DNA of 35,017 nt from an uncultured archaeon (GTDB taxonomy: Archaea; Asgardarchaeota; Thorarchaeia; Thorarchaeales; Thorarchaeaceae). The DNA is taken from positions 1-35,017 of the forward strand of contig CAYFTD010000172.1 in assembly GCA_964345915.1 (NCBI GenBank), written 5' to 3'. Under the pieces are notes generated by a model, which made no database searches, had not been told where the DNA came from, and worked only from the letters and a program-made list of their open reading frames with translations. Positions 7,674 to 32,238 of this stretch are shown here, piece after piece (positions within the stretch are counted from its first letter, which is position 1; every line of letters begins with the position of its first letter). The translations under genes and the position numbers were made by a program.

Positions 7674-7784
7674 GCTCCGGTAGATGTGCTATGAGAATCA
7701 TCATGGTATTGCCGTGTGTAGTCCGGCCCAGCATGGGGGACTCTCGATCCCCCGACCCGGGTTCAAATCCCGGCCGGAGCACCA
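7674..7784 (+). tRNA. tRNA-Glu: tRNA-Glu (anticodon CUC) with a ~33-nt intron in the D-arm region and genomically encoded CCA
   Basis: The 5' acceptor GCTCCGG (7674-7680) pairs with CCGGAGC (7774-7780). T-arm is CCGGG-TTCAAAT-CCCGG. Anticodon stem GGGGA/TCCCC has loop CTCTCGA (CTC at 7743-7745). The D-arm GTGTAGTCCGGCCCAGCAT resumes at ~7716, leaving 7683-7715 as extra sequence. A73 plus CCA occupy 7781-7784. Confidence 0.75.
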
Positions 7785-10023: not shown

Positions 10024-13000
10024 ATGTCCACTGAAAGACTGCGCAGAGAAGATAGTGAAGAACTGATGCAAATGAAAGGGTACCCTATACTGTGGCGTGG
10101 AATTGAGCTTGTTTGGAAGCTAGGAATTGTCACTTGTGCACTCTACCTTCTGACTGTATATCTACTTCCTTCATTAGGTCTGTTGGGTGCGCTATCAATC
10201 CCATCCAAACTCATGGTAGAGCTTCTCATCTGTGGTGTGCCCTTGTGTATGGGCGGCCTAGTCGTCGTTGAAAGACTGATTTCTGAGCGGGCTTCGGTCA
10301 CGATAGATGATGAACTGCTCGTACTTCGTTTGAAAGACCAGATGGTTGCAACATGCTGTCTTGACATCGCTTCGGTTTCAGGTTCTGTTCGTGCTGGAGA
10401 GAATGAACGGCCTGAATATGACACAACCTACCTGTTGGCATTGCGTGCCGGAATGGATGAACGTGTCAGCATGACCTACGAAGCCGGTGTTTTAGGCGGT
10501 GCACCTTATCTGCGCCTCTTCATAACTGGATCAGGTAGCGATTCAGATGAAACTGCGGACTTGTTGAAACGAGAAGCTACTAGAGCAGAAGCAATTCTCC
10601 TTGCTTCTTTGAGTAATATTGAACTCCGTCAATTGAAAGGCGATGATCTGAAGAACGCGACCTTGGGACTAATCAACGCAGACCTTGATGCACGTCAGGG
10701 TCTATCGTTCACAAAGAGGTCAGTCTGCCTATTGCTGCTTGCTGGAGAACCTCGTGTCGAACCCTCAACAGAGAGGTCTCAGGTAGGCGTGTTTATTTCT
10801 ACTGCGTTGAAACAACAATACGACGTCGTATTCTCATGTGTCTTCTCTAGGTCGAAATCTCGTCGAGAACAAAGGAAGCTAGAGAAACAGTGGAAGACAA
10901 TCCGTGAGAAGGAGATGCGAAATGAAGATTCTTTGGCTGACCAATCTGAGAAGAGGAAGCTTGTACGGCGCTACGAGAAGATTCAAGGGAGTACGGGCTG
11001 GTTTGATACGACGGCCCATTTAGTCATAAAAGCAGATGAACCTCAAAAGCTGCAGGAATCTCGAGAAGGGACCATTGGACTCGTGCATTCAATATGGGGA
11101 GATGATGACAAGGTTCTGTTGAAGCATAAGACAATTGATAGAAGGACCGCCTTCCGATTGCTCCTACGACGTCATATGAAAAGAGAGAAGACGCATGTTA
11201 GTAGATTAGCGGCCTTTGTCAACACGCCCGTTCAACAACTGCCAGTCATTGCAGCCTCCCAAGTACCCGACTTTTCTATACCTGCTAGAGAGCTTGTTGA
11301 GAACGAGTTAGTGGTAGGCCAGGCAGTCTTTGGGGGTCGGCTTCTAAACAATATTGGACTCAAGACAGAATGGTTGCGAGAACATGTGGCTATCCTTGGA
11401 GCGACTGGAACTGGAAAGACCACTCTTGTGAAGCATCTTGTTGCAGAGCTGAGTAAGAAATCGCAGGTGCCCTGGTGGGTGTTTGATATCAAGGGATCAG
11501 AGTACATTGAGCTGTTGGACGTATGTGACAGCGATGTTCTTGTGCTTCGACCTGGTGCTGATCCTTCATTCTTCATTGACTTCATGGATTCTGAAACTGA
11601 TTCTAAGGAGAAACATGCACATACTACATTTGCGATATTGAGAGAGTTGCTGAATGAGAGAGGTGTGGCATCTGAGCTTTCCCCGGCAATGGAGAAGCTT
11701 CTGAGAGAGGCAGTTCTCCTTGTTGCCAAGAAGAAAGAACGAGGGAACTCAATTCAGACATTAATCGAAACAATCTCTCAACTCGCTGGAAAAGATCGAA
11801 CCGGACGGATGACACGAGACGCATTGATGAATCGTCTAGAGGTGCTTTCCCGGGAACCACTTGGATCAATATTGGGTGGTGGACCCAGAGCAATGCGAAT
11901 CTCTGAGCTGATGGGCACGCGTGTGATTCTTGATCTACATTATGTTGCACGAGTCGGCGGGATGGATGCCGCCAGATTGCTGTATAATCTGATTGCAAAG
12001 CGGATATTCGATTTCGCTATGCAAAGAGGAGTAAGACCTGGTCTCCATCATGTCGTGGTTCTCGAAGAGGCCAGCAATCTGGTTCCTGAGAGTTACATTA
12101 GGCACTCGGCAGCAGACATCACAACAGGTGAATCCATGGTAATGCTGCAAAGAGCAACAGGACAAGGAGTTGTCATCGTTTCTACGAGACCCAACGTGTC
12201 CTCCAACATACTCGCGAACACGGCCACTAAGATCACATTTCGTCTGCCATATGATAGTCACGTTGGTGCAAGATTCATGTCTCTCGATAAGAATCAGGAG
12301 AGGTATCTGAGATCCTTGAAACGTGGTAGAGCCTTGATTGTAATGCCTGGCATCGAGGCGTTCGAGTTAGCTACCCGTCCTTTCGACGTTTCCACGACTT
12401 CTCACCGAATGCACAAGAGAGATGACCTAATTGGTGAAGAGCTAGAAGAGTCGTCTGATGGAACCCACAACAAAGATACTATAGCTGTTTCATCCAGAGA
12501 ATTGGAATCAGAACGGCCTGCAGGCGCAGTGTTTGATAGGCTCGGAGAGCTTGGATCACACGTTGTTGCCTTTCTTGCATCAAGGAACATGGCTACTCAA
12601 ATAGAAATACAGGGACTTCTCAGGTCGATTGACCCTAGAATAGAAGATGAGGACATAGATGAAGTCATACGAGACCTTGTTTCTTTGGGAACAGTTGATA
12701 GAGAGGCCCTTTCTCTAGTCCCCGGGGGGTTTTTGTTCACTCTGCCAGGCCGTTGTCTTGATGCGGTGAGAACGGCAATTGCTGACTATATAGTCTACCG
12801 ACTAGGATCAATTGAAACAACACCCGAACGAAGTAAGACTGATCGCCCGGATATTGTGGTTGACGATAAGGCGATTCTGATACTTCCAGAACATCTGAAA
12901 GCGTCTTCGATGGAATCAACCCTTGACAAGATTCGTAAATGCATGGCAAATCTAGGTAACAATGTGACCGAGCTGACCGTGATTGTTAGGGGTAGTGTTG

Positions 13001-13818
13001 CAGCTGCCAAGCTCAGAGAGATCATGGATAGCACAGATGCCTTTGATGCGGTAACAACCATATCTGCCTTTCCGACTTCTCTTGATGCAATGATTGAGAG
13101 TTTGCATCCTCAGACATTGTCGAACACGAATGTGAAATCATTCAACACGCAAAGAAACCCAGAAGGTGCTTCGCATGAAACTGGACAGGTGGACTTGATT
13201 GGTGCAATGCATGACGTTGGAACCGCCACTAACCGGGCGATTCAGATGCGTCTGTGGTTTCAATTGATCCAGGATTTCGTCGGACTGTCAGAAGGGCATG
13301 TACAGTGGGATGTTCTGTTGGACTTCATCGAAACGACCGCGTTGCAGTCCGTCAAGAGTCACACAGCTCCATTGAGCGTTGAAGAAGGTAAGAGAGCTTT
13401 GACTGAGTTGTTAGCTGATGAGGTCCTCATTGCTCTACGTGTGGGGGAGAAATTGGAGTTTGTAAATCTTCACAAGGGTCTCTGGATTGTCAACTCGGCC
13501 ATGCTTGAGGATTTCAAGAAATCTGTTATAGATGCCTTGGGAAAGGATCTTCGCAGTCAGAACGGTAGGGTTAAGCGAAACCACAGTTACTATGATCTGT
13601 GTTGTAATGGCGTTTCTTACGTGGTGTTTCCAAACCAGCAACAACTCAATACTCTACTTCACCTTCACAACAACATCGCGTGTAGAACATGTGGATCAAC
13701 TCGGATAGTCTGTGTGTTGACTGCTGCCGAGTATCTCGATGAGAGTATAGCAATGCCAGGAAACGTCCAGCTTTATGACTTCTCGGAGTATCTCTCAGTT
13801 ACCACTGCAACAGGATAG
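10024..13818 (+). CDS. Membrane-anchored P-loop ATPase of the HerA/FtsK/VirB4 (DUF87-like) class with a long C-terminal extension
   Basis: 1264 aa with 2-3 N-terminal TM helices (aa ~30-85). Walker A VAILGATGTGKTTLVKHL then WWVFDIKGSEY (~11398-11470), Walker B HHVVVLEEASNLVPE (~12046-12090), and VIVSTRPNVSSNILANTATKITFRLP. A ~450-aa C-terminal region has a winged-helix-like stretch (VVAFLASRNMATQIEIQGLLRS...VIRDLVSLGTVD) and terminal Cys pairs. Confidence 0.8.
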   Translation: MSTERLRREDSEELMQMKGYPILWRGIELVWKLGIVTCALYLLTVYLLPSLGLLGALSIPSKLMVELLICGVPLCMGGLVVVERLISERASVTIDDELLVLRLKDQMVATCCLDIASVSGSVRAGENERPEYDTTYLLALRAGMDERVSMTYEAGVLGGAPYLRLFITGSGSDSDETADLLKREATRAEAILLASLSNIELRQLKGDDLKNATLGLINADLDARQGLSFTKRSVCLLLLAGEPRVEPSTERSQVGVFISTALKQQYDVVFSCVFSRSKSRREQRKLEKQWKTIREKEMRNEDSLADQSEKRKLVRRYEKIQGSTGWFDTTAHLVIKADEPQKLQESREGTIGLVHSIWGDDDKVLLKHKTIDRRTAFRLLLRRHMKREKTHVSRLAAFVNTPVQQLPVIAASQVPDFSIPARELVENELVVGQAVFGGRLLNNIGLKTEWLREHVAILGATGTGKTTLVKHLVAELSKKSQVPWWVFDIKGSEYIELLDVCDSDVLVLRPGADPSFFIDFMDSETDSKEKHAHTTFAILRELLNERGVASELSPAMEKLLREAVLLVAKKKERGNSIQTLIETISQLAGKDRTGRMTRDALMNRLEVLSREPLGSILGGGPRAMRISELMGTRVILDLHYVARVGGMDAARLLYNLIAKRIFDFAMQRGVRPGLHHVVVLEEASNLVPESYIRHSAADITTGESMVMLQRATGQGVVIVSTRPNVSSNILANTATKITFRLPYDSHVGARFMSLDKNQERYLRSLKRGRALIVMPGIEAFELATRPFDVSTTSHRMHKRDDLIGEELEESSDGTHNKDTIAVSSRELESERPAGAVFDRLGELGSHVVAFLASRNMATQIEIQGLLRSIDPRIEDEDIDEVIRDLVSLGTVDREALSLVPGGFLFTLPGRCLDAVRTAIADYIVYRLGSIETTPERSKTDRPDIVVDDKAILILPEHLKASSMESTLDKIRKCMANLGNNVTELTVIVRGSVAAAKLREIMDSTDAFDAVTTISAFPTSLDAMIESLHPQTLSNTNVKSFNTQRNPEGASHETGQVDLIGAMHDVGTATNRAIQMRLWFQLIQDFVGLSEGHVQWDVLLDFIETTALQSVKSHTAPLSVEEGKRALTELLADEVLIALRVGEKLEFVNLHKGLWIVNSAMLEDFKKSVIDALGKDLRSQNGRVKRNHSYYDLCCNGVSYVVFPNQQQLNTLLHLHNNIACRTCGSTRIVCVLTAAEYLDESIAMPGNVQLYDFSEYLSVTTATG

Positions 13819-18540: not shown

Positions 18541-19608
18541 TTGTTACCTGAGGAGAGGGGTCTCTTTAATTGTTGGCCTCGTATCTACATTCTTGTGAAG
18601 TCCTTAAGCTCTCAGCCTATTGAGGGTTACTTCGTTGTGACTGATGAGGCTCTTGTATTTGAAGTCAAGGGAGTTGTGCATCCTCGCGATCGATTGATTG
18701 CATATCTGAGGTATGTTCCTGATGACAAAGGAAATCGCCAGTCAAGAAATGGCAGAAGATTCAACAAGATATACAGGCTGAAGGATCGCGAACAGTACCT
18801 TCGTGACAGATACCCTGAGTTTCTGTGGTCAGATAGGAAACGTGGACGAGTGTTCCAGACTGTTCCAGTTGATTGTGTCGATTATGTCCTGAGTCCCATT
18901 GATGGACTGCGCCAACTTAGGGACCTTGGAGCACATCTGACTCATCTCGAAGAAGCGTCCTGTGTGCTTGCTCAGGCGTTTGTTGAACAGGCTTGCATCG
19001 ACTGGTCTGACCTTGGTCTCACTGGTTCTCAGCTCGCCGGTCTTAGTACCGCTGAATCTGATATCGACCTTGTTGTATATGGTTCAGACCCAGCCAGAAG
19101 ACTTCACTCTGTCTTGAAACACCACCTTGATCAATTCCCGGATGTCAGCCGATACAGAGATGAACGGCTTGAGAAACATGTGAAGTTTAGGTGGAAAGCC
19201 CTTGGAAGATGGAAGTCTGTATTACAAGTAATAGAATCTCAGAAGGCTTTCCAAGGCGTGTTTAGCTCCATTGATTTCTTTGTTAGAGCTGTGAAACTGC
19301 CAAGAGAGATTGGCCATCGCTATGAGGACCTCAGTATCAAAAGCGAGGGTATTCGAGAAACGAGGTGTTCGGTGATAGATGATTCTGACTCGATTTTCAC
19401 TCCGTGTATCTATCTTGTGCAATGTGATGAGTTGCCAGACATCAAAAGACTGGTCAGCTATCGTGGTCGTTTTGCAGAACATACCTCCAGAGGTTCTTTC
19501 GTCAGAGCAAGAGGTCGACTCGAAGTAGTTGACAACGATAGAAGTGGTGAAAGCTATCAACAGCTTGTTCTTGGAGAGAGTCCGGAAGATTATCTTCTAC
19601 CAATCTGA
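18541..19608 (+). CDS. Nucleotidyltransferase-domain protein (Pol-beta superfamily)
   Basis: GLTGSQLAGLSTAESDIDLVVYGSD is the G[SG]...DxD minimal NTase signature. The rest is unassigned. The start is uncertain (TTG 18541; a GTG ~18595 is possible). Confidence 0.6.
   Translation: MLPEERGLFNCWPRIYILVKSLSSQPIEGYFVVTDEALVFEVKGVVHPRDRLIAYLRYVPDDKGNRQSRNGRRFNKIYRLKDREQYLRDRYPEFLWSDRKRGRVFQTVPVDCVDYVLSPIDGLRQLRDLGAHLTHLEEASCVLAQAFVEQACIDWSDLGLTGSQLAGLSTAESDIDLVVYGSDPARRLHSVLKHHLDQFPDVSRYRDERLEKHVKFRWKALGRWKSVLQVIESQKAFQGVFSSIDFFVRAVKLPREIGHRYEDLSIKSEGIRETRCSVIDDSDSIFTPCIYLVQCDELPDIKRLVSYRGRFAEHTSRGSFVRARGRLEVVDNDRSGESYQQLVLGESPEDYLLPI
19218..19234. repeat. Bipartite GTAWTAC motif (TGTATTACAAGTAATAG)
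   Basis: Two inverted heptamers in 9-bp register, inside the NTase gene. Confidence 0.6.
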
Positions 19609-19661
19609 ATCAGATCTTGTTGACAGATTCACGGTATTTACACGGTTTCACAGTCAACCTC

Positions 19662-20018
19662 TGTGAATGGCGCCCTTTTTGTGAATAGTCTACAGAAAAG
19701 GGACCTCAAATCAGTCCGTGAGGGCTGATGGGACCCCATAGAGGTCCGTAGTCCTGTGAATGAAGCCACCCCTTGGTTTCCAGTGGAATGGGATAACTAG
19801 AGATATGAAATGCTTGTTGAGTCATTCACAAAGTACATAGTTTGGTGAACAAGAGAAGAACTGGAGAATGGGCCAATTTCCTGATTTAGAGGCACCATAG
19901 GCCTTCTTTTGTGTTTTAAGGGATTCACAAGCTGCCAGCACAGTTATAGCATAACGGACGTGTTCTGAATGCGTACAGACGCATTATGTAGCCGTTACCA
20001 TGGTATTGGCAATTCACA
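19662..20018. repeat. Mirrored heptamer array: TGTGAAT x3 (19662, 19680, 19755), then ATTCACA x3 (19824, 19923, 20012)
   Basis: Six exact 7-mers in one 496-bp spacer. All forward copies are left of the ORB-like box at 19768-19788 and all reverse copies are right of it. Near-copies are TGTGAAC at 20054, GGTGAAC at 19844 and ATTCACg at 19627. Confidence 0.7.
19768..19788 (-). promoter_or_regulatory. ORB-type origin recognition box (copy A)
   Basis: The reverse complement TTCCACTGGAAACCAAGGGGT combines a TCCA-N2-GGAAA dyad with a G-string, the form of archaeal Orc1/Cdc6 ORB elements. It is 20/21 identical to copy B. Confidence 0.55.
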
Positions 20019-20104
20019 TACTCACACTTATTTGAGAAACGAATTCAGATACTTGTGAACACGGCTTCATGCACTGAGCCAAGTAGAAGTAAACAAGGAA
20101 CTGG

Positions 20105-20743
20105 GTGAATGATTTGAAGACTGAAGAGAGAACGGGGTATTTGTACGAGTTCACATACAACTCCGGCCCGGGCCTACGAGAAATCTTTCAGTGCAAATAC
20201 GTCAAGCCTGATGAGGCATTGACAAGATTCCGAAGAATTCTTTCTCTCACAGAGGAGCCATTTGATTTCAGAATCGTAGTACGAGATGAGTCCAAGAGAG
20301 AAGAGTCTAGCTTCCAAGTCGAAGGTGGCAGCATAAAGGAGATGTTCGAGAAATTCAAGGTCTTCTTGGAAGCGAGTACCGGTCATTCCTTTGCCCCGGA
20401 GAAAGAAGAGGCAGTTGATGCTGGGATTGAAGAAATCAGCTATGAGTCAATGAGTAGTTATGAGAAGATGCACATTGTAATATATGCATCCTTCAAGCAC
20501 GGCAAGTTCTCTTCCTTGGATGTTGCCGAGATCTATCAAGCAACATTTAATGAAGACCTACCAAAGAGTACTGCTTCTACGTATCTTGCCCGAATGTGGA
20601 ATGATGGAAAGGGCCATCTTGAAAGACATGGGAATCGTTCGGGCTATACGTATCGACTCAAGACTGAGATCTCGGAAGTCCAGAAAGAAGCTGAGAGAGC
20701 CGAGGGAATTCTTGCTTCTATCCAGCTTCACGTAGGCAAGTAG
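20105..20743 (+). CDS. Hypothetical protein with a C-terminal winged-helix DNA-binding domain
   Basis: 212-aa ORF (GTG 20105; an in-frame TTG at 20114 follows an SD-like GGGTGA). The C-terminal LDVAEIYQATFNEDLPKSTASTYLARMWNDGKGHLERHGNRSGYTYRLK has an HTH-plus-wing pattern. The N-terminal half is unassigned. Confidence 0.6.
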   Translation: MNDLKTEERTGYLYEFTYNSGPGLREIFQCKYVKPDEALTRFRRILSLTEEPFDFRIVVRDESKREESSFQVEGGSIKEMFEKFKVFLEASTGHSFAPEKEEAVDAGIEEISYESMSSYEKMHIVIYASFKHGKFSSLDVAEIYQATFNEDLPKSTASTYLARMWNDGKGHLERHGNRSGYTYRLKTEISEVQKEAERAEGILASIQLHVGK

Positions 20744-20756
20744 CTTCTGAAAGTGA

Positions 20757-22082
20757 TCAATCCCCAGACAACAGAGTCACACTTTCTTCCAGTTTGATGT
20801 CTAGGTTCTCGAGCTCGTTGAGAATTGGTTCATAAAGCTCTGGCATTACTGGTCGCTGGACTCCTGTGAGAGTAATCGAACCGTCAAGAATCATCTTGCT
20901 TGCAATGGCTACAGGTAATGCGACCGTTCTGGACATTGAACTATCTCCATTGGGAATGCCATAGTCAATCATTGTCGAGGTGATCTTCTCCTTTCGGTCT
21001 GGGTACTCAGCAATGAACTCATGATGCATGACAATCATGTCTCTTTCGCCAGGAGCATATTGCAGTTTCTCTTCGAACAGATAACAGAGTACATCCAGAT
21101 ATGTATTGATACCGGAAGGAATGTTCTGAGTGCTGAATAGTCCAAGCCAATCAAGACGGGAGATTATCGGATTATCACTCTTGAGACCAATGACCTCGGA
21201 AACGGCCCCTGCAATTTCCAATTCCTTGGAGTCTACCAGTTCATACATCATATCAGCAAAGGTCATCCCATCAAAGCTGCGTTCGTTAAGTGACAAGAGG
21301 CCAAGATCGGCAATCTTTTTGAGTGTGCTACACCAGCCAAGATTCCTGAAAGTGCCTCGTAGCATAGTGTTCGTTTCAGGGATGGCGTATGTATCAATGA
21401 ATGACATGCTGTCACGATTGGGATATCCCTCGAACTTGCCCATTCCAGGAACCTCCATTATCTCATAGTTGTCGAAGAGCTCGGGTCCCGGAATCCTGAC
21501 TTCTTTCCCATCTCGAAGAAAGTGAGCATCATTTCGACCAGCGAGTAGAACTCCTCTGGGACTCCAGGACAACTTGTATCCAAATGGATTATCGTTGGCC
21601 TCTGGAGCAGGAAGGCCACCTGTAAAGGAGGTGAAGCTGTTTATCTTTCCGCCTTGATTGTGGACATGATCAATGATCTTCATGGCACTCATATGGTCAA
21701 TCCCAGGGTCCACGCCACACTCGTTCAAAATGAGAATCCCCGCTGTCTTGGCGGCCTCGTCTAGTCCTTGCATTTCCTCTGAGATGTATGATGTCGTGCA
21801 GAATGGTTTCCCATAGTTGATTGCCACTTTTGCGGCTTTGAAATGGTAGGTGGATGGGAGAATTGAACAGATCAAGTCAGACTCGGCTGTTAGTTTGTCA
21901 AGGAGACTGTCGTCAGTCTTGATATTGAAGACTGTAGCTTTAGCGTTCTTGCAGCCTGTGATGAGTCGATCTGCTTTGCTTTTCGTTCTGCTTGCAACTG
22001 TCACATGGAATCCATGGTCACTGAGATATTGTACATAAGGACGGGCCACCAGGCCTGCACCAAGACAGAGCACATTCTTCAT
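20757..22082 (-). CDS. Saccharopine dehydrogenase (LYS9 / AASS SDH-domain type)
   Basis: Rossmann N-terminus MKNVLCLGAGLVARPYVQYL. Full-length resemblance to the L-glutamate-forming SDH family (GVDPGIDHM, YKLSWSPRGVL). The start overlaps the stop of the upstream LKR gene (ATGA at 22079-22082). Confidence 0.85.
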   Translation of the reverse strand: MKNVLCLGAGLVARPYVQYLSDHGFHVTVASRTKSKADRLITGCKNAKATVFNIKTDDSLLDKLTAESDLICSILPSTYHFKAAKVAINYGKPFCTTSYISEEMQGLDEAAKTAGILILNECGVDPGIDHMSAMKIIDHVHNQGGKINSFTSFTGGLPAPEANDNPFGYKLSWSPRGVLLAGRNDAHFLRDGKEVRIPGPELFDNYEIMEVPGMGKFEGYPNRDSMSFIDTYAIPETNTMLRGTFRNLGWCSTLKKIADLGLLSLNERSFDGMTFADMMYELVDSKELEIAGAVSEVIGLKSDNPIISRLDWLGLFSTQNIPSGINTYLDVLCYLFEEKLQYAPGERDMIVMHHEFIAEYPDRKEKITSTMIDYGIPNGDSSMSRTVALPVAIASKMILDGSITLTGVQRPVMPELYEPILNELENLDIKLEESVTLLSGD

Positions 22083-23488
22083 AGTCGGTTCTCCTTTGCC
22101 GTCAGATATTGATTTAGATACTTGTAGTCTTCCGTAAGTTCTCCCTGATATACAATCACTGCGTTCTTGAGCTCTCTCGGAAGGTCAAGCTCTTCGAATG
22201 GTATTTTGAAGTCTGCTTTTGCAAGCGCAGGTACATAGTCCAAAAGCGTTTCGCTGAATGATGTGGAAGACTCGCGTGGGAGTTCGCATGGGAGATTATC
22301 AACAGCCATTACTACAGGACCATCACCAGACACACCAAGCTTTGCTCGGTCTTCATCTACAATGTACGTGAACGCTGGATTTCCCGGATTTGTGCATCGA
22401 GTAGTGAATTCGATTGCTCCCTCGATATCGCACGAGATGTCACCTATCACCTCGAGTTTGCGGCTCTCGTTGTGCCAGTGTTCTTGCATGAAGTCCTTTC
22501 TCACAAGGCGCGGATATCTCTCAGCCCAGTAGATGCAGTTCATGATTACTGAAAGATAAGGGACATACTTGTGAAAGACTCCCCGGTATTTGGCTGAGCC
22601 ATTCTTGTAGTAGTCCTGAAGAACGAAGTCTGCCGTGGGATCCTTGGGTTCCACCATGTGCTCTTCTTTGAAGATGCACTTGTAGAGGATGTTGTCCTTT
22701 GGATCGGGGATCTCAGAGATATGTTCCGGCTGAACTTCTTCATGAGGAAGTAGGTCAAACATCTCTTGTGCACCGCGTGATACATTCCCGTAACCTGCGA
22801 AGCCCACAATGAATGGAACCATGTGTTTAGGCAGGCCCTCATCAACAATTCGACGACCCAGATACTGGAATTCCTTCTTGAGTTCTGCAAGATTCTTTGC
22901 TTGCAGGGTAGGTTTCATTCCGGAGAAGGGGTTTGGTGTGATCCCTTTGAGGTCAAGGCGATCTCCGAGAACTCGTAGTGTGTCTGATATGCCAGCCATG
23001 CCTGCCCAGTTACCGAAGAAGATTAGCCTTCGACCCTTTTCGTCGATGACTCGTTCATAGTCTATTAGAGTAGCACCCACATCCAGGATTCTCTTTAACA
23101 TAGGCATGTTTTGCTTCTGCCCCTTTATAGTGTGGCTGAAGAAGACGTAGACTGTGCCCCTCTCAAAGAAGTCTGATGGCATCTCCTTGATTCCTAAGAT
23201 GACCGGAATGTTTCTTCCCTTTAGTTGACCAACCTCAGCTCCAACTTCTTTGAACTCGTTAGTGTCAAATGCTCGTTGGTCACTGGGTTCAACAATGAAT
23301 TGAATTTGGTGTTTCTTGGATAGCTCCATAATATGCTTGGGTACAACAGGCACTCTTGTTTCGAAGGCTTTTTCCTCTTGTCGAAGACCAACAGTGTTCA
23401 TGAGATCTCTTCCTTTTGGCTTGTTGATGTGTATCTGGAGGTAGTTCGCGGGGGATTCATCGTCCGCTTTAACCTTTCCATCCCACAT
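22079..23488 (-). CDS. Lysine-ketoglutarate reductase-like protein (AlaDH/PNT-fold; AASS LKR-domain type)
   Basis: YVFFSHTIKGQKQNMPMLKRILDVGATLIDYERVIDEKGRRLIFFGNWAGMAG matches the plant/animal LKR signature (FFSHT.KAQ.ENM.LLD.IL....L.DYE...). GYGNVSRGAQEMF, CIYWAERYPRL and DISCDIEGAIEF are also present. Confidence 0.8.
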   Translation of the reverse strand: MWDGKVKADDESPANYLQIHINKPKGRDLMNTVGLRQEEKAFETRVPVVPKHIMELSKKHQIQFIVEPSDQRAFDTNEFKEVGAEVGQLKGRNIPVILGIKEMPSDFFERGTVYVFFSHTIKGQKQNMPMLKRILDVGATLIDYERVIDEKGRRLIFFGNWAGMAGISDTLRVLGDRLDLKGITPNPFSGMKPTLQAKNLAELKKEFQYLGRRIVDEGLPKHMVPFIVGFAGYGNVSRGAQEMFDLLPHEEVQPEHISEIPDPKDNILYKCIFKEEHMVEPKDPTADFVLQDYYKNGSAKYRGVFHKYVPYLSVIMNCIYWAERYPRLVRKDFMQEHWHNESRKLEVIGDISCDIEGAIEFTTRCTNPGNPAFTYIVDEDRAKLGVSGDGPVVMAVDNLPCELPRESSTSFSETLLDYVPALAKADFKIPFEELDLPRELKNAVIVYQGELTEDYKYLNQYLTAKENRL

Positions 23489-23513: not shown

Positions 23514-23525
23514 GAACATGTGTTC
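23514..23525. promoter_or_regulatory. GAACAYGYGTTC box 1 (GAACATGTGTTC)
   Basis: Near-palindromic 12-mer followed by CAGTAATTGG, so GTTCCAGTAA resembles a mini-ORB. It is one of three related 12-mers in the 23.5-24.1 kb spacer. Confidence 0.4.
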
Positions 23526-23844
23526 CAGTAATTGGTTGTCAGAATTGTCGTCGTACTTTCTCTATCTCTATGATTGTAAGCGGGCTCGACAGATCAATGC
23601 GCGTAGAGTGTCTTTCACCAAAGAGCTCCATGGTTATGTCTACTCTTGGAAGACAAGAAGTGGGATTCGCCAAAAGAAGAAACCAGGGTTGATTGACCAA
23701 TGTGAAGGTGCTCAGGCGGTTGCTGATTCTGCAATCCTAGTCCCTGGAGAGTTCAAGCCGGTCTTTGATCAGTTCTTCTTGTCTTACGTGGATATCCTAG
23801 TTCTGAAAGTCTACGAGGTAATTGGTGAGGTGCTGTGGTAGTTA

Positions 23845-23856
23845 GAACACGTGTTC
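23845..23856. promoter_or_regulatory. GAACAYGYGTTC box 2 (perfect palindrome GAACACGTGTTC)
   Basis: Perfect 12-bp palindrome 12 nt left of ORB copy B. Confidence 0.45.
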
Positions 23857-23868
23857 CAACACCCATGG

Positions 23869-23889
23869 ACCCCTTGGTTTCCAGTAGAA
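23869..23889 (-). promoter_or_regulatory. ORB-type origin recognition box (copy B)
   Basis: The reverse complement is TTCTACTGGAAACCAAGGGGT. It directly abuts the AT-rich stretch and is inverted relative to copy C. Confidence 0.6.
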
Positions 23890-24010
23890 AGTCAATTGAG
23901 TTATAATGCGATTAGAAATCAGAAAATATAAATAGGTGTTTATGAAGCTGTAGTATATCTCCATTTTAATTACTTATTATATAACTCGCTGAAAAAACTC
24001 CATAGATCAT
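23890..24010. other. AT-rich candidate duplex-unwinding element
   Basis: About 120 bp that is visibly far more AT-rich than its surroundings (aatcagaaaatataaataggtgtttatg...ccattttaattacttattatataac), bracketed by inverted ORB copies B and C. Confidence 0.55.
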
Positions 24011-24031
24011 CTCCACTGGAAATGAAGGGGT
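24011..24031 (+). promoter_or_regulatory. ORB-type origin recognition box (copy C)
   Basis: CTCCACTGGAAATGAAGGGGT on the + strand: same dyad plus G-string, facing copy B across the AT-rich stretch. Confidence 0.6.
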
Positions 24032-24070
24032 GTTGTGCCATAATATCTGAGTATGACTGGGACATTACTC

Positions 24071-24082
24071 GAACACGCGTTC
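24071..24082. promoter_or_regulatory. GAACAYGYGTTC box 3 (GAACACGCGTTC)
   Basis: Third copy of the 12-mer, 39 nt right of ORB copy C. Confidence 0.4.
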
Positions 24083-24094
24083 TATGTCCCTATG

Positions 24095-24113
24095 ATAATA
24101 CTTGTAATACAAG
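24095..24113. repeat. Bipartite GTAWTAC motif (ATAATACTTGTAATACAAG), containing the perfect palindrome CTTGTAATACAAG
   Basis: Intergenic, 70 bp right of ORB copy C. The 13-bp perfect palindrome is at 24101-24113. Confidence 0.7.
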
Positions 24114-24229
24114 ACTTGGATAGCATACTTGGGAACTAAGTTTCATTATCTATTACCACAAGGTTGATACATGATACACTCTCCCCGTCGTTTCGTCCCA
24201 AAACCACTGGTTAATCGGAGGCTCAATAG

Positions 24230-26122
24230 TTGACCAGGCCAAAGGAATTACTTGAAGACAAAGTTGGCAAGAAGGCCCTACTTCTGGCAAATGAGGCAAT
24301 TGCTCGTGGAGTCCTTGAGGCTGGAGTTCGTCTTGTAGCATTATACCCTGGAACTCCAAGTAGTGAGATAGGAAACAATCTGACCTCAATGGCACCACAC
24401 ATATCCAACTTCTATTTCGAATTCAGTGCAAATGAGAAGGTTGCTTTGGAAGTGGCTGGAGCCGCTGCTGTGGCCGGTGTTAGATCTATGATGGTCTGCA
24501 AGGGGCCTGGTCTCAATGTGGCCGCAGACCCATTCTTTTCTCTAGCATATGTTGGCGTGCGTGCTGGAATGGTGATTGTAGTCGCCGATGATCCGAGTAT
24601 GTGGAGCTCTCAAAACGAGAATGACAGTAGATACTATGCACTGATGGGCAACATGCCAATGATTGAGCCAGCAGATCCTGCAGAAGCCAAGGCAATGTTG
24701 CTGGAGGCGTATGAGATATCGGAGGAATTGGAGCTACCCGTACTTTTCAGAACCACCACCCGTGTCAACCATACCAGAGCTCCAGTTGAGTTCAACAAAA
24801 TCAAAGAGAGGCCAAACACTATAGACTTTGTAAAGGAGCCCTTTCGTTTTGTCCCAATACCTTCCGTGGCAAGGAAACGTCATCCAATACTCTTGGAACT
24901 GATGAAGAGGGCGACTGAAATTTCAGAATCTACATCTCTCAACTTCACGCACGGACAAGGGGACCTTGGGATTATTACTAGCGGAGTTTCTTACAACTAT
25001 GTCCTTGAAGCACTCTCCACTATGAACCTTGAGGCAGAAGTTCTCAAGCTAGGTATGACGCATCCGGTTCCTGAGAAAACCATCATCGACTTTCTGAAGC
25101 GCCACAAGAAAGTTGTCGTGGTCGAAGAGCTTGAGCCTTTCCTGGAAACACACGCTCGACGAATAGCACAACTACGATCAATCCCCGTTGAGATTGTAGG
25201 GAAGGAACAGGACTACTTCTCTCGCGCATACGAATATAGTCCAAGGATTGTCATCGAGGCTCTTTCAAGGATTATGAATCGTAATACAAGTATTAACTGG
25301 AATGCTATTGACCAGAAGGTGAAGAAGCTCCCAGATCTTCCTCCGAGACCACCGTTGTTGTGTGCGGGATGTCCTCATCGAGCTACATATTATGCAATCA
25401 GGAGTGCTACGCGTGGCAAAGCCATATACCCCTCAGACATAGGGTGCTACACTCTAAGCATTTCACCACCACTAGAAACCGCAGATATCCTGTTTGACAT
25501 GGGCTCATCAATAACCACTGCTTGCGGCCTAGCACGTGTGACAAATCAAGATGTCGTGGCATCGATAGGTGATAGTACGTTCTTTGCATCTGGACTTCCA
25601 GGCATTGCAAATGCTGTCTACAATCGTCATCCAATCAGTCTGGTTGTCCTTGACAATCGTACTACTGCAATGACTGGCCATCAACCGCACCCTGGTACTG
25701 GAATCACCGGAATGCAAGAAGAGGTACCCCCTTTGGACATAGCAGAAGCATGTAGGGGTCTTGGCGTGGAGTATGTGATAGATGTAGATCCATTCGCACC
25801 TTTGGCAAATCTTGTTGCACAGGTTCGAGAGATGGTGACTTGGGTAAGGGAGAACGAAGCACCTGCAGTGATGGTGTCAAAGGCACCCTGTGCTCTTCTC
25901 ACAGCCGCTAATCGACGTAAGACCGGAGAGTATCCTCCAGACTACTATGTTGACGAGGAGCTATGCAATACATGCAAACGTTGTCTGAATCGTCTATCCT
26001 GTCCAGCGATGTATCTCGATTCTGAAACTGAGAAGGCCGTGATTGAAGAAACTCTTTGCAACCTTTGTGGTACCTGTACAGACGTATGTCCTCAAGGTGC
26101 AATCAAGCAAGAGGAGGTATGA
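24230..26122 (+). CDS. iorA: Indolepyruvate:ferredoxin oxidoreductase, alpha subunit
   Basis: 630 aa. NEAIARGVLEAGVRLVALYPGTPSSEI, TPP site GDSTFFASGLPG, and C-terminal ferredoxin-like Cys motifs (CNTCKRCLNRLSCP, CNLCGTCTDVCP). TTG start 8 nt after a GGAGG. Confidence 0.9.
   Translation: MTRPKELLEDKVGKKALLLANEAIARGVLEAGVRLVALYPGTPSSEIGNNLTSMAPHISNFYFEFSANEKVALEVAGAAAVAGVRSMMVCKGPGLNVAADPFFSLAYVGVRAGMVIVVADDPSMWSSQNENDSRYYALMGNMPMIEPADPAEAKAMLLEAYEISEELELPVLFRTTTRVNHTRAPVEFNKIKERPNTIDFVKEPFRFVPIPSVARKRHPILLELMKRATEISESTSLNFTHGQGDLGIITSGVSYNYVLEALSTMNLEAEVLKLGMTHPVPEKTIIDFLKRHKKVVVVEELEPFLETHARRIAQLRSIPVEIVGKEQDYFSRAYEYSPRIVIEALSRIMNRNTSINWNAIDQKVKKLPDLPPRPPLLCAGCPHRATYYAIRSATRGKAIYPSDIGCYTLSISPPLETADILFDMGSSITTACGLARVTNQDVVASIGDSTFFASGLPGIANAVYNRHPISLVVLDNRTTAMTGHQPHPGTGITGMQEEVPPLDIAEACRGLGVEYVIDVDPFAPLANLVAQVREMVTWVRENEAPAVMVSKAPCALLTAANRRKTGEYPPDYYVDEELCNTCKRCLNRLSCPAMYLDSETEKAVIEETLCNLCGTCTDVCPQGAIKQEEV
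25281..25296. repeat. Bipartite GTAWTAC motif (GTAATACAAGTATTAA)
   Basis: Inverted heptamers in 9-bp register, inside iorA. Confidence 0.6.
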
Positions 26123-30973: not shown

Positions 30974-31261
30974 CTACCCTTGTAGATGTCTGCTGGCTAT
31001 GTCCGGAAACTCTTCAGACAAAGCTTCCCGTAATCTCCGTTCAACCCACATACTCAGATTGATTGCCCTTTCATTTCTCACGTTTTGAAGACATGATCTA
31101 AGCTCTGTGGTGAACGAGAACGAAACAATTGGACTCTTTCGTTCTTTGTTAGGCACTGCTACGACAGACCTACTTCTTTCAGCGACTGTGGTTCTCTCCA
31201 TAGCTGTTGGTCTTGCATCTCTCTCTTCTTCGGAATCTCGATACTTCTTTAGAACACTCAA
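30974..31261 (-). CDS. Ribbon-helix-helix (CopG/Arc-like) small DNA-binding protein
   Basis: IVSFSFTTELRSCLQNVRNERAINLSMWVERRLREAL gives a beta-strand plus two helices in the RHH pattern. The TTG start at 31261 is 2 nt after the upstream AAA+ stop; the alternative Met (MERTT) gives 75 aa. Confidence 0.55.
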   Translation of the reverse strand: MSVLKKYRDSEEERDARPTAMERTTVAERSRSVVAVPNKERKSPIVSFSFTTELRSCLQNVRNERAINLSMWVERRLREALSEEFPDIASRHLQG

Positions 31262-31263
31262 AC

Positions 31264-32238
31264 CTAGCGCACCTCTCTAAGCAATTCAGCATATGCTTCT
31301 GATACTAGTTTGGCAGTTTCTCTGTCCACTTCTGGATCTCCGTTGCGTCTGAAACCCTCTGCGGCCACCTGTTGACATCCTCTTGCCAACATCCGGATGT
31401 CACGTGGGTTCCCCTTGGCCGCTTCATTGATGACCTCAATTGCAGCATCATCGAATGGGTAGATCTCAAAGCTACCAGGGTCAAAGCTGTCTATGCGTCC
31501 TTGAGCATAGTAGATTCTTCTCCCGATGAACTCCTTTGCTTTCTGATTATCAAACGGTGGGACATCCAAAGGCTCAGTCCTGTCTGCAATCTGTGGTAAA
31601 AACGAAAGCATGGCATTCCAGTAGATTGCGGTGCCAGACATTATCAAAGTGACAATCGGTTCATCGAGCACGTCCGGATAATCGGCTTTCATTTCTTGAG
31701 TTGGAAGATCAGCCAGATAACGCAGCTTGTGGAATGCCGTTTCCTGATTGTCTGCGACATCCTCAAGGAACAGTGCAGTGCGACAGTTCTCTTCGATATA
31801 CCTTCTCACAGATTCCTGAGCGACAGTCTCTATGATTTGACTGGACTCCCATGACCTTCGATACTTTATCCTCAAAGAGTCGGCAATGGCAGCCGACATC
31901 TGTTTCTCATAGAGTCCTGTCATGCCAACGTAACCAGTCACGAATTTGTTTCCTTTGCGATCAGCTAAGGTCGGCAGGTCTCTGAGAGCAAGCAACATCA
32001 GCGTACTCTTCCCAGATCCCACTGGGCCTCTAAGGAAGATATGCCGTTCATTAGTGAGAATCAGATCCACAAGGTGATCCAGGAATTCCGGCCATTCAAT
32101 GTAGAGTCGTGAGTCCGGCATCTTGTAACCACGAAAGGGAGAGAACCGAGCACCAATCCGCTCTTCCCAAGCCCGCAAAACTTCCTTGCGAGTGTTGAAG
32201 TGGCGGATCAACGCACTCTCATGAATCGCTATTGTCAT
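31264..32238 (-). CDS. AAA+ ATPase, Orc1/Cdc6-like (or ExeA/TniB-like AAA_22) module without a winged-helix domain
   Basis: Walker A FLRGPVGSGKSTL, Walker B ALFLEDVAD, sensor-1-like LIMSGT, PPF..QKAKEFIGRRI and a lid with GNPRDIRMLARGC (compare GDAR..L.LL of Cdc6). The protein ends ~40 aa after the lid. Confidence 0.7.
   Translation of the reverse strand: MTIAIHESALIRHFNTRKEVLRAWEERIGARFSPFRGYKMPDSRLYIEWPEFLDHLVDLILTNERHIFLRGPVGSGKSTLMLLALRDLPTLADRKGNKFVTGYVGMTGLYEKQMSAAIADSLRIKYRRSWESSQIIETVAQESVRRYIEENCRTALFLEDVADNQETAFHKLRYLADLPTQEMKADYPDVLDEPIVTLIMSGTAIYWNAMLSFLPQIADRTEPLDVPPFDNQKAKEFIGRRIYYAQGRIDSFDPGSFEIYPFDDAAIEVINEAAKGNPRDIRMLARGCQQVAAEGFRRNGDPEVDRETAKLVSEAYAELLREVR

Follow-up and report, generated by a model that had tools for sequence, protein, structure and literature searches.

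A probable replication origin of canonical ORB/DUE type in a Thorarchaeota archaeon, uncoupled from its orc1/cdc6 gene

Introduction

In Pyrococcus, the chromosomal replication origin (oriC) belongs to a cdc6-oriC-PolD DP1 neighbourhood, in which two origin recognition boxes (ORBs), ORB1 and ORB2, flank a duplex unwinding element (DUE). The subject of this report is a locus in a 35,017-bp stretch of DNA, the whole of which is referred to as the window, from an archaeon of the Asgard group Thorarchaeota. The window corresponds to an entire NCBI contig. Judged from its sequence, the segment at positions 23845-24082 of the window is very probably the core of the chromosomal oriC of this archaeon. 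The origin is of the canonical ORB/DUE type, a kind already known. Literature searches gave nothing specific on a replication origin described for Asgard or Thorarchaeota, and as far as the searchable literature shows no origin had, to our knowledge, been defined by sequence in an Asgard lineage before.

The Pyrococcus/Thermococcus origins have an ORB core in common with the window, TCCAGTGGAAA..., which is also carried by primers in PMC11005403, and share with it the arrangement of inverted boxes around an AT-rich stretch. An orc1/cdc6 and DP1 gene pair adjoins these origins, as it does in a sister Asgard lineage of the organism studied here. The window neighbourhood, in contrast, lacks the orc1/cdc6-DP1 pair, and no mini-ORB array is seen at the locus; it adds GAACAYRTGTTC palindromes, ATTCACA boxes and the genes orf107 and orf212.

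The ORB sets of Methanomassiliicoccales, of the form GTTCCAGTGGAAATGA-AGGGGT, are near-identical to the window boxes, the right-hand box (ORB-R) included (Borrel et al. 2014, PMC4153887). They too are found as inverted pairs, with boxes to either side of a block of genes (PMC4153887). The block flanked by the Methanomassiliicoccales pairs holds orc1/cdc6.1 (PMC4153887), whereas the window pair and a third box, ORB3, flank orf212, a saccharopine dehydrogenase (SDH) gene, an LKR-type gene and orf107. At oriC1 of Haloferax volcanii and at other haloarchaeal origins, G-string ORBs near GTTCCAGTGGAAAC-AAA----GGGGG are combined with AT-rich DUEs and with an inverted GC skew polarity, an excess of C on the leading strand, all of which resemble the window (Norais et al. 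2007, PMC1868953). The haloarchaeal origins adjoin an orc gene and carry more repeats, spread over ~1 kb (PMC1868953). The window differs from them in having one inverted pair and one distant box, with no adjacent initiator gene.

Origins that do not lie beside a canonical orc1/cdc6 gene are known from Sulfolobus (oriC3) and from Aeropyrum pernix, so that physical separation of an archaeal origin from the gene encoding its firing Orc1/Cdc6 has been seen before. At Sulfolobus oriC3 the associated initiator gene is a different one, whiP, which adjoins the origin, and the sites involved are not ORBs. The window boxes, in contrast, are fully canonical ORBs, and their uncoupling is traceable to a rearranged ancestor that was adjacent to orc1.

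An inverted ORB pair encloses the least stable stretch of the window

The left box, ORB-L (23869-23889, minus strand), reads TTCTACTGGAAACCAAGGGGT on the minus strand and ACCCCTTGGTTTCCAGTAGAA on the plus strand, with its dyad adjoining the AT-rich stretch and its G-string directed away from it. The right box, ORB-R (24011-24031, plus strand), reads CTCCACTGGAAATGAAGGGGT. In the repeat search the two boxes are recovered as an inverted repeat of 20 nt, 85% complementary, with 123 nt between the arms. Between ORB-L and ORB-R lies the candidate DUE (23890-24010, no strand), 121 nt long and 73.6% AT, with conserved blocks ATATAAATAG at 23926-23935 and ATCTCCATTTT at 23957-23967. The 120-mer at 23885-24004 has the highest AT content of the window (74.2%; window mean 53.3%, standard deviation (sd) 3.5; the runner-up reaches 64.2%) and the weakest nearest-neighbour duplex energy (-109.5 against a window mean of -136.5, sd 4.5). 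In AT-richness and instability it stands ~6 sd off the window mean, and the ORB pair encloses the contig's only strong DUE-like stretch.

Both boxes agree with the published pan-archaeal ORB consensus, CTTCCAGTGGAAACGAAAGGGGT (PMC4153887), and with the listed ORBs (PMC4153887; PMC1868953). When up to 3 mismatches are allowed, TCCACTGGAAANNAAGGGGT has 3 sites in the 35,017-bp window, compared with 0.01 in shuffled sequence, and 0 of 100 shuffles gave 3; all three window boxes, ORB3 among them, fit with 0-1 mismatch. There are three boxes in the 35-kb window and none in the other ~20 kb of the related locus L145, the count covering these stretches.

The exact box pattern was scanned in one genome per species for 185,579 species and is found in at least 119 genome stretches, with 116 archaeal among the matches listed. 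An Orc1/Cdc6-like open reading frame (ORF) shares the 8-kb block with the box in 42 of the matches listed, and in 28 of those 42 blocks the box lies within ~730 bp of it; on three of these ORFs the domains Cdc6_lid and Cdc6_C are confirmed by Pfam. Thorarchaeota-type matches, again among those listed, all correspond to the ORB3 locus. Neighbouring ORBs on opposite strands at other archaeal loci are arranged as '-+', with dyads inward and G-strings outward, in 29 pairs and as '+-' in 3, the '-+' pairs having AT-enriched gaps of 142-273 nt. The window pair has the '-+' orientation, with its G-strings outward.

These results bear out most of a preliminary description of this DNA, made from the sequence. 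It had placed the two boxes at positions that prove exact, facing each other across AT-rich DNA that is now seen to be the most AT-rich and least stable of the window. The box architecture that it proposed, a TCCA-N2-GGAAA dyad followed by a spacer and a G-string, fits the published consensus, in a pattern that is nearly archaea-specific. Its reading of the layout as inverted ORBs around a DUE agrees with the polarity of 29/32 pairs. The preliminary description also located the boxes in a 740-bp spacer between LKR and iorA; that spacer is not empty, since orf107 lies inside it, and the true noncoding gap holding the boxes is 23842-24229 (388 bp).

The pair is conserved in relatives and orthologous to an orc1-adjacent locus

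At the DNA level the window is ~69% identical to several Thorarchaeota metagenome-assembled genomes, and a metagenome scan with LKR yields one identical fragment and six syntenic relatives, with LKR identities of 66-87%. The inverted pair is present in loci L121-L124, in the single-contig 2.58-Mb Thorarchaeota assembly CP070658.1 (L145) and in the deeper lineages L152 and L154, and L125 has one clear box with a degenerate partner. In CP070658.1 the pair maps to about 1.787-1.808 Mb, and SMTZ1_10000031 and JAFGAR010000088.1 are examples of long contigs on which the locus is found. ORB-L is kept in L121-L124, L145 and L154. The gap between the boxes is held at 122-125 nt in the Thorarchaeota relatives. 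In a spacer alignment of six lineages, 14/21 columns of ORB-L and 15/21 of ORB-R are invariant, compared with 1/39 and 2/12 in the linkers and 19/121 in the DUE stretch. The latter is AT-enriched in every relative (62-75%, versus 51-63% across the locus). Such a footprint is expected for protein-binding boxes around a stretch constrained in composition and not in sequence. Boxes and spacing are conserved relative to the flanking noncoding DNA, and both are under purifying selection across Thorarchaeota.

Distant homologues of orf107 (34-41% identity) adjoin canonical initiator genes; two of them, P0247 and P0245, adjoin Orc1/Cdc6 and DP1 in other Asgard lineages. In L146-L148 and L156, the left part of the locus consists of PGM, PolD DP1 (plus strand), Orc1/Cdc6 (minus strand) and an ORB with TGTGAA/TTCACA boxes. 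The middle part holds a 167-aa winged helix-turn-helix (wHTH) homologue of orf212, followed by the orf107 homologue. The core is formed by GAACATATGTTC, an ORB on the minus strand, 136 nt at 87.5% AT, an ORB on the plus strand and a second GAACATATGTTC, and the right flank by iorA, iorB, ACS, HypF, a homologue of the AAA+ protein AAA324, atpD, NAC and TYW2. The window shares the right flank and the module with this locus, and only the left end differs. In L149-L151, the gene order is DP1, Orc1/Cdc6, orf107 homologue, the Orc1 being named by NCBI 'ORC1-type DNA replication protein' and assigned to Promethearchaeota/Lokiarchaeota.

In the Thorarchaeota arrangement, the orc1/cdc6-DP1 pair is separated from the left end, and an SDH-LKR pair is interposed between orf212 and orf107. 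L152 and L154, which are intermediate lineages, already show this gene order, with orc1 likewise missing from the vicinity. Because the module is adjacent to orc1/cdc6 in the sister lineage, the window locus is taken as the orthologue of a classical orc1/cdc6-DP1-adjacent oriC, from which the initiator gene was separated early in the group. Rearrangement accounts for the absence of orc1/cdc6 beside the window origin. An orc1/cdc6 gene beside the origin, a usual and not an obligatory feature, is missing in the window and present at the orthologous locus of the sister lineage. The origin of a mobile element was considered and rejected, the locus being embedded in stable housekeeping synteny.

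Base composition switches at the pair

Raw GC skew over the 35 kb is uninformative. At third codon positions (GC3), the plus-strand skew is positive in 14/15 genes to the left of the pair, whatever their orientation, with a mean of +0.138, and approximately zero or negative to the right, with a mean of -0.045. The two sides differ (Mann-Whitney p = 5.5e-4), with no effect of the transcription strand. The corresponding left and right values are +0.183 and -0.098 in L124 and +0.163 and -0.070 in L125, and in both the two-segment split that fits best is placed precisely between orf107 and iorA. The pattern is thus shared by relatives with largely re-randomised third positions. The third-position switch of L146, L152 and L154 involves T/A instead, T being enriched on the would-be leading strand. 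No composition switch is seen at ORB3.

The lineages are not brought together by one common purine/pyrimidine skew, which is not significant in the window. At orc1-adjacent ORB pairs of other archaea, the skew polarity is negative at 7 and positive at 3 of the 10 usable loci, in 8-kb blocks that are too short for calibration. The would-be leading strand is pyrimidine-enriched in both groups, through C in the window group and through T in L146, L152 and L154.

Palindromes and a third ORB extend the locus

A 12-bp palindrome, GAACAYRTGTTC (general form GAAC-N4-GTTC), is present in three window copies that bracket orf107 and the ORB pair. P1 (23514-23525, GAACATGTGTTC) lies between LKR and orf107, overlapping the orf107 ATG, and is kept at the same position in L121-L126. 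P2 (23845-23856, GAACACGTGTTC) is situated 12 nt outside ORB-L and 4 nt past the orf107 stop codon; 11/12 of its columns are invariant, and it occupies the same place in L121-L126, L145 and L154. P3 (24071-24082, GAACACGCGTTC), located 39 nt outside ORB-R and upstream of iorA, is positionally conserved with 10/12 columns invariant. In the AT-rich sister lineage L146, the centre of the palindrome is altered, giving GAACATATGTTC. The range of the preliminary description, 23845-24082, starts and stops exactly on P2 and P3, and the palindromes are unmentioned there.

ORB3 (19768-19787, minus strand), a perfect ORB of sequence TCCACTGGAAACCAAGGGGT, has the orientation of ORB-L and lies 4.1 kb to its left. 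It is kept at the syntenic position in L041, L051, L064, L077, L114, L122-L126, L152 and L154, and its equivalent in L146 is found between the divergent orc1/cdc6 and wHTH genes. ORB3 is absent from the preliminary description. The conserved noncoding region around it (19609-20104) contains ~9 positionally conserved ATTCACA/TGTGAAT boxes, an invariant 23-mer at 20011-20033 (AATTCACATACTCACACTTATTT on the plus strand) and GGCGCCATTCAC. With a mean column identity of 69%, this region is more conserved than the neighbouring genes. TTCACA/TGTGAA hexamers are concentrated here, 6 of the window's 39 falling in the 500-nt bin 19500-19999 and 3 more in the next bin; ATTCACA-type boxes also surround the orc1-proximal ORB in L146. 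The box set around ORB3 looks like an iteron-type array. As an initiation site, the ORB3 region was rejected, having neither a strong AT-rich stretch nor a composition switch.

Within the same region, positions 19968-19985 form a small hairpin or palindrome, AATGCGT-ACAG-ACGCATT, in which the changes seen in relatives keep the pairing by eye, for example C-G to T-A in L124. It has no Rfam match and might be either a binding site with dyad symmetry or a structured element at the RNA or DNA level. Neither Rfam (gathering threshold) nor ARAGORN finds RNA genes in the two intergenic regions. The simplest reading of the palindromes and ATTCACA boxes is that accessory DNA-binding proteins bind there; that orf107 and orf212, the obvious candidates, are those proteins is speculation.

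Function as an origin and alternative explanations

The assignment of 23845-24082 as an oriC core is argued from the ORB match, the polarity of the pair, its AT-richness, the purifying selection on boxes and spacing, the composition switch and the orthology to an orc1/cdc6-PolD-DP1-adjacent locus. From this combination we infer Orc1/Cdc6 binding, melting and firing at the window locus. A canonical Orc1/Cdc6, encoded elsewhere in the genome, would bind each of the two inverted ORBs, with its winged-helix domain on the TCCA-N-TGGA dyad beside the AT-rich stretch and its AAA+ domain reaching toward the outward-pointing G-string. The 121-nt AT-rich stretch would melt, MCM would be loaded there, and forks would leave both ways. 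The origin would also be wider than 23845-24082, comprising a palindrome outside each ORB, a third palindrome upstream of orf107, and ORB3, ~4 kb to the left in the ATTCACA box array upstream of the wHTH-like orf212. Unusual features are the uncoupling from orc1/cdc6, the conserved extra elements with two lineage-specific genes, and the polarity and carrier nucleotide of the switch.

Several observations weigh against an origin at this site. The gap of 122 nt is shorter than in all 29 '-+' comparison pairs. The skew evidence is local, reaching no more than ~24 kb leftward and ~20 kb rightward, and in the window the best unweighted split lies 3 kb further right, after the gene g18. The sign of the GC3 switch, with a C-rich leading strand, is opposite to the bacterial convention, and the bacterial rule would place a terminus here. 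The nucleotide carrying the asymmetry differs among Thorarchaeota sublineages (G/C versus T/A), with no explanation at hand. A search of the window and the compared loci did not locate this organism's own Orc1/Cdc6 gene.

It is unlikely that the locus is a relic or dormant origin, in which ancestral oriC boxes are still bound by Orc1/Cdc6 and rarely or never fire, the main origin lying near the relocated orc1/cdc6. Such a state would fit the lack of orc1/cdc6 and DP1 over 24 kb or more on the left and ~18 kb on the right, as well as the facts that several origins are common in archaea and that active ones are usually beside the initiator gene (PMC1868953). Selection on boxes, spacing and AT-richness, however, persists across lineages that are all without an orc1 neighbour, and the composition switch recurs at the pair in several lineages, something that would not arise at a silent site.

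Regulatory roles are known for Orc1 paralogues, and the site could instead serve transcriptional control, the ORBs being Orc1/Cdc6 operators and the GAACAYRTGTTC palindromes the operators of a second regulator, for orf107 and for LKR-SDH and iorAB, two divergent operons of amino-acid catabolism, with no role in initiation. P1 and P3 are promoter-proximal, P1 overlapping the start of orf107, and ORB3 too is in a promoter region, the corresponding one in L146 being the divergent promoter of orc1 and the wHTH gene. Single orphan ORBs away from origins have also been reported (PMC4153887). As a complete account, regulation is nevertheless quite improbable, leaving unexplained the fixed-length, extremely AT-rich stretch between inverted boxes, the origin-type polarity, the composition switch and the position of P2 at the 3' end of a gene. 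One site may serve both functions, so part of the regulatory explanation may hold as well.

We know of no archaeal ORB-based terminator, which counts against a terminus at this site. A region of fork convergence, with the ORB pair as an Orc1-bound fork barrier, is what the 'leading strand G-rich' rule would give for the window group, where a G-rich plus strand on the left gives way to a neutral or C-rich one on the right, but it is highly improbable: the site bears every sequence hallmark of an origin and adjoins orc1/cdc6-DP1 in the sister lineage, a C-rich leading strand has been described for mapped origins of haloarchaea (PMC1868953), and the T/A switch in L146, L152 and L154 has the opposite, conventional sense.

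Taken as an origin, the locus would be a concrete, sequence-defined oriC for Thorarchaeota with orthologues in other Asgard lineages. It would give a fixed reference point to replichore analysis and to the estimation of growth rates from metagenome coverage, and a defined DNA substrate to Asgard Orc1/Cdc6 and MCM-loading biochemistry. It would also show clearly that an origin can persist once its initiator gene has relocated. New origin-associated factors may be represented by the palindromes, the box array and the two lineage-specific genes. A more specific proposal, in which orf107, orf212, the GAACAYRTGTTC palindromes, the ATTCACA array and the Orc-like AAA+ protein without a winged helix are Asgard-group-specific origin factors working with Orc1/Cdc6, is doubtful; if true, accessory sequence-specific proteins and a second Orc-like ATPase would act at the origin.

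The missing initiator gene and the AAA+ protein AAA324

No Orc1/Cdc6 is found in the window by Pfam, by tblastn or by an Orc1 hidden Markov model (HMM) run on six-frame ORFs, and the same HMM finds none in any of the Thorarchaeota loci compared. The Orc1/Cdc6 gene of CP070658.1 was not found in the stretch searched. The preliminary description had already remarked on this absence, now confirmed by Pfam and the Orc1 HMM, and had pointed to an initiator-like ATPase without a winged helix 7 kb away. That protein, AAA324 (31264-32238, minus strand), is an AAA+ ATPase lacking a winged-helix domain, encoded 7.2 kb to the right of the ORB pair.

AAA324 has weak Pfam matches to AAA_22 and ORC-CDC6-like, with no Cdc6_lid or Cdc6_C. 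Against the Orc1 profile, hhalign aligns only the Walker A region (probability 14.5%). In a fold search with its AlphaFold2 (AF2) model (predicted local distance difference test, pLDDT, 74.6), the top Foldseek matches in the PDB are archaeal Orc1/Cdc6 structures (1w5t, 2qby_A, 1fnn and 2v1u; E 3.5e-8 to 7e-7, template modelling (TM) score 0.43-0.50), followed by eukaryotic ORC/Cdc6 subunits. With Orc1/Cdc6 as the nearest fold, the earlier wording is a fair description. AAA324 resembles the AAA+ part of Orc1/Cdc6 and is not a member of the family. Its synteny is kept in L145 and L156. It is always followed by a ~95-aa ORF (30974-31261, minus strand in the window), and the two are inverted relative to the sister lineage, yet still ~7 kb from the ORB pair. 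A link of AAA324 to the origin is hypothetical. As a replacement for Orc1 it was rejected, because a homologue and a canonical Orc1/Cdc6 are both present in the sister lineage (L156).

Genes around the locus

The small gene orf107 (23518-23841, plus strand) encodes a conserved 107-aa protein that is always beside the ORB pair, with 45-92% identity in every syntenic relative (tblastn). The family is tiny, with 11 representative clusters among 1.84 billion proteins, and its 70 close homologues are all named Thorarchaeota-type. The alignment is characterized by the motif LYVYDC..NARRVxFTKELYGYxYxWKT..KRKxGL..DSAILVP..FDxLFxxYxDIL..RxFxV. By eye, the protein resembles a beta-alpha-beta-beta-alpha-beta unit of the Cas2/ferredoxin-like kind.

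Downstream of ORB3, orf212 (20105-20743, plus strand) is lineage-specific and very conserved, with 85% mean column identity across Thorarchaeota. Its 305 homologues are all named Thorarchaeota-type, and none carries a Pfam domain. The protein has an N-terminal beta-beta-alpha-beta-beta-alpha domain, and its C-terminal half shows a winged-helix-like pattern, H-H-H-b-b in the AF2 model, followed by a long helix; the model has a pLDDT of only 59.8, and a fold search with this low-confidence model gives no meaningful assignment. The winged-helix-like call is drawn solely from the sequence and the pattern of secondary structure. In L146, the 167-aa gene that separates orc1/cdc6 from the orf107 homologue matches the C-terminal half of orf212 (40% over 110 aa, E 5e-28), and its shorter N-terminal part does not align with that of orf212. 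Sequence searches of the PDB with AAA324, orf212 and orf107 return nothing useful, and no identical sequence is retrieved for orf107 or SDH.

Pfam confirms SDH (20757-22082, minus strand), the LKR-type AlaDh/PNT gene (22079-23488 as the longest ORF, minus strand), iorA (24230-26122) and iorB. LKR most likely starts at 23401 instead of 23488, because its Pfam domain begins at residue 34 and the second ATG, at 23401, agrees better with the N-terminus. With this start the gap between LKR and orf107, in which P1 lies, becomes wider.

Two minor features lie further to the left. At 10024-13818 (plus strand), a 1264-aa HerA/DUF87-type ATPase gives the best, insignificant, score with the Orc1 HMM, confined to the P-loop. 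At 7716-7773 (plus strand), Rfam reports a tRNA match of 30.7 bits against a threshold of 29, covering model positions 10-63, where ARAGORN finds no tRNA. A tRNA fragment could account for the match, as could a tRNA that is atypical or contains an intron.

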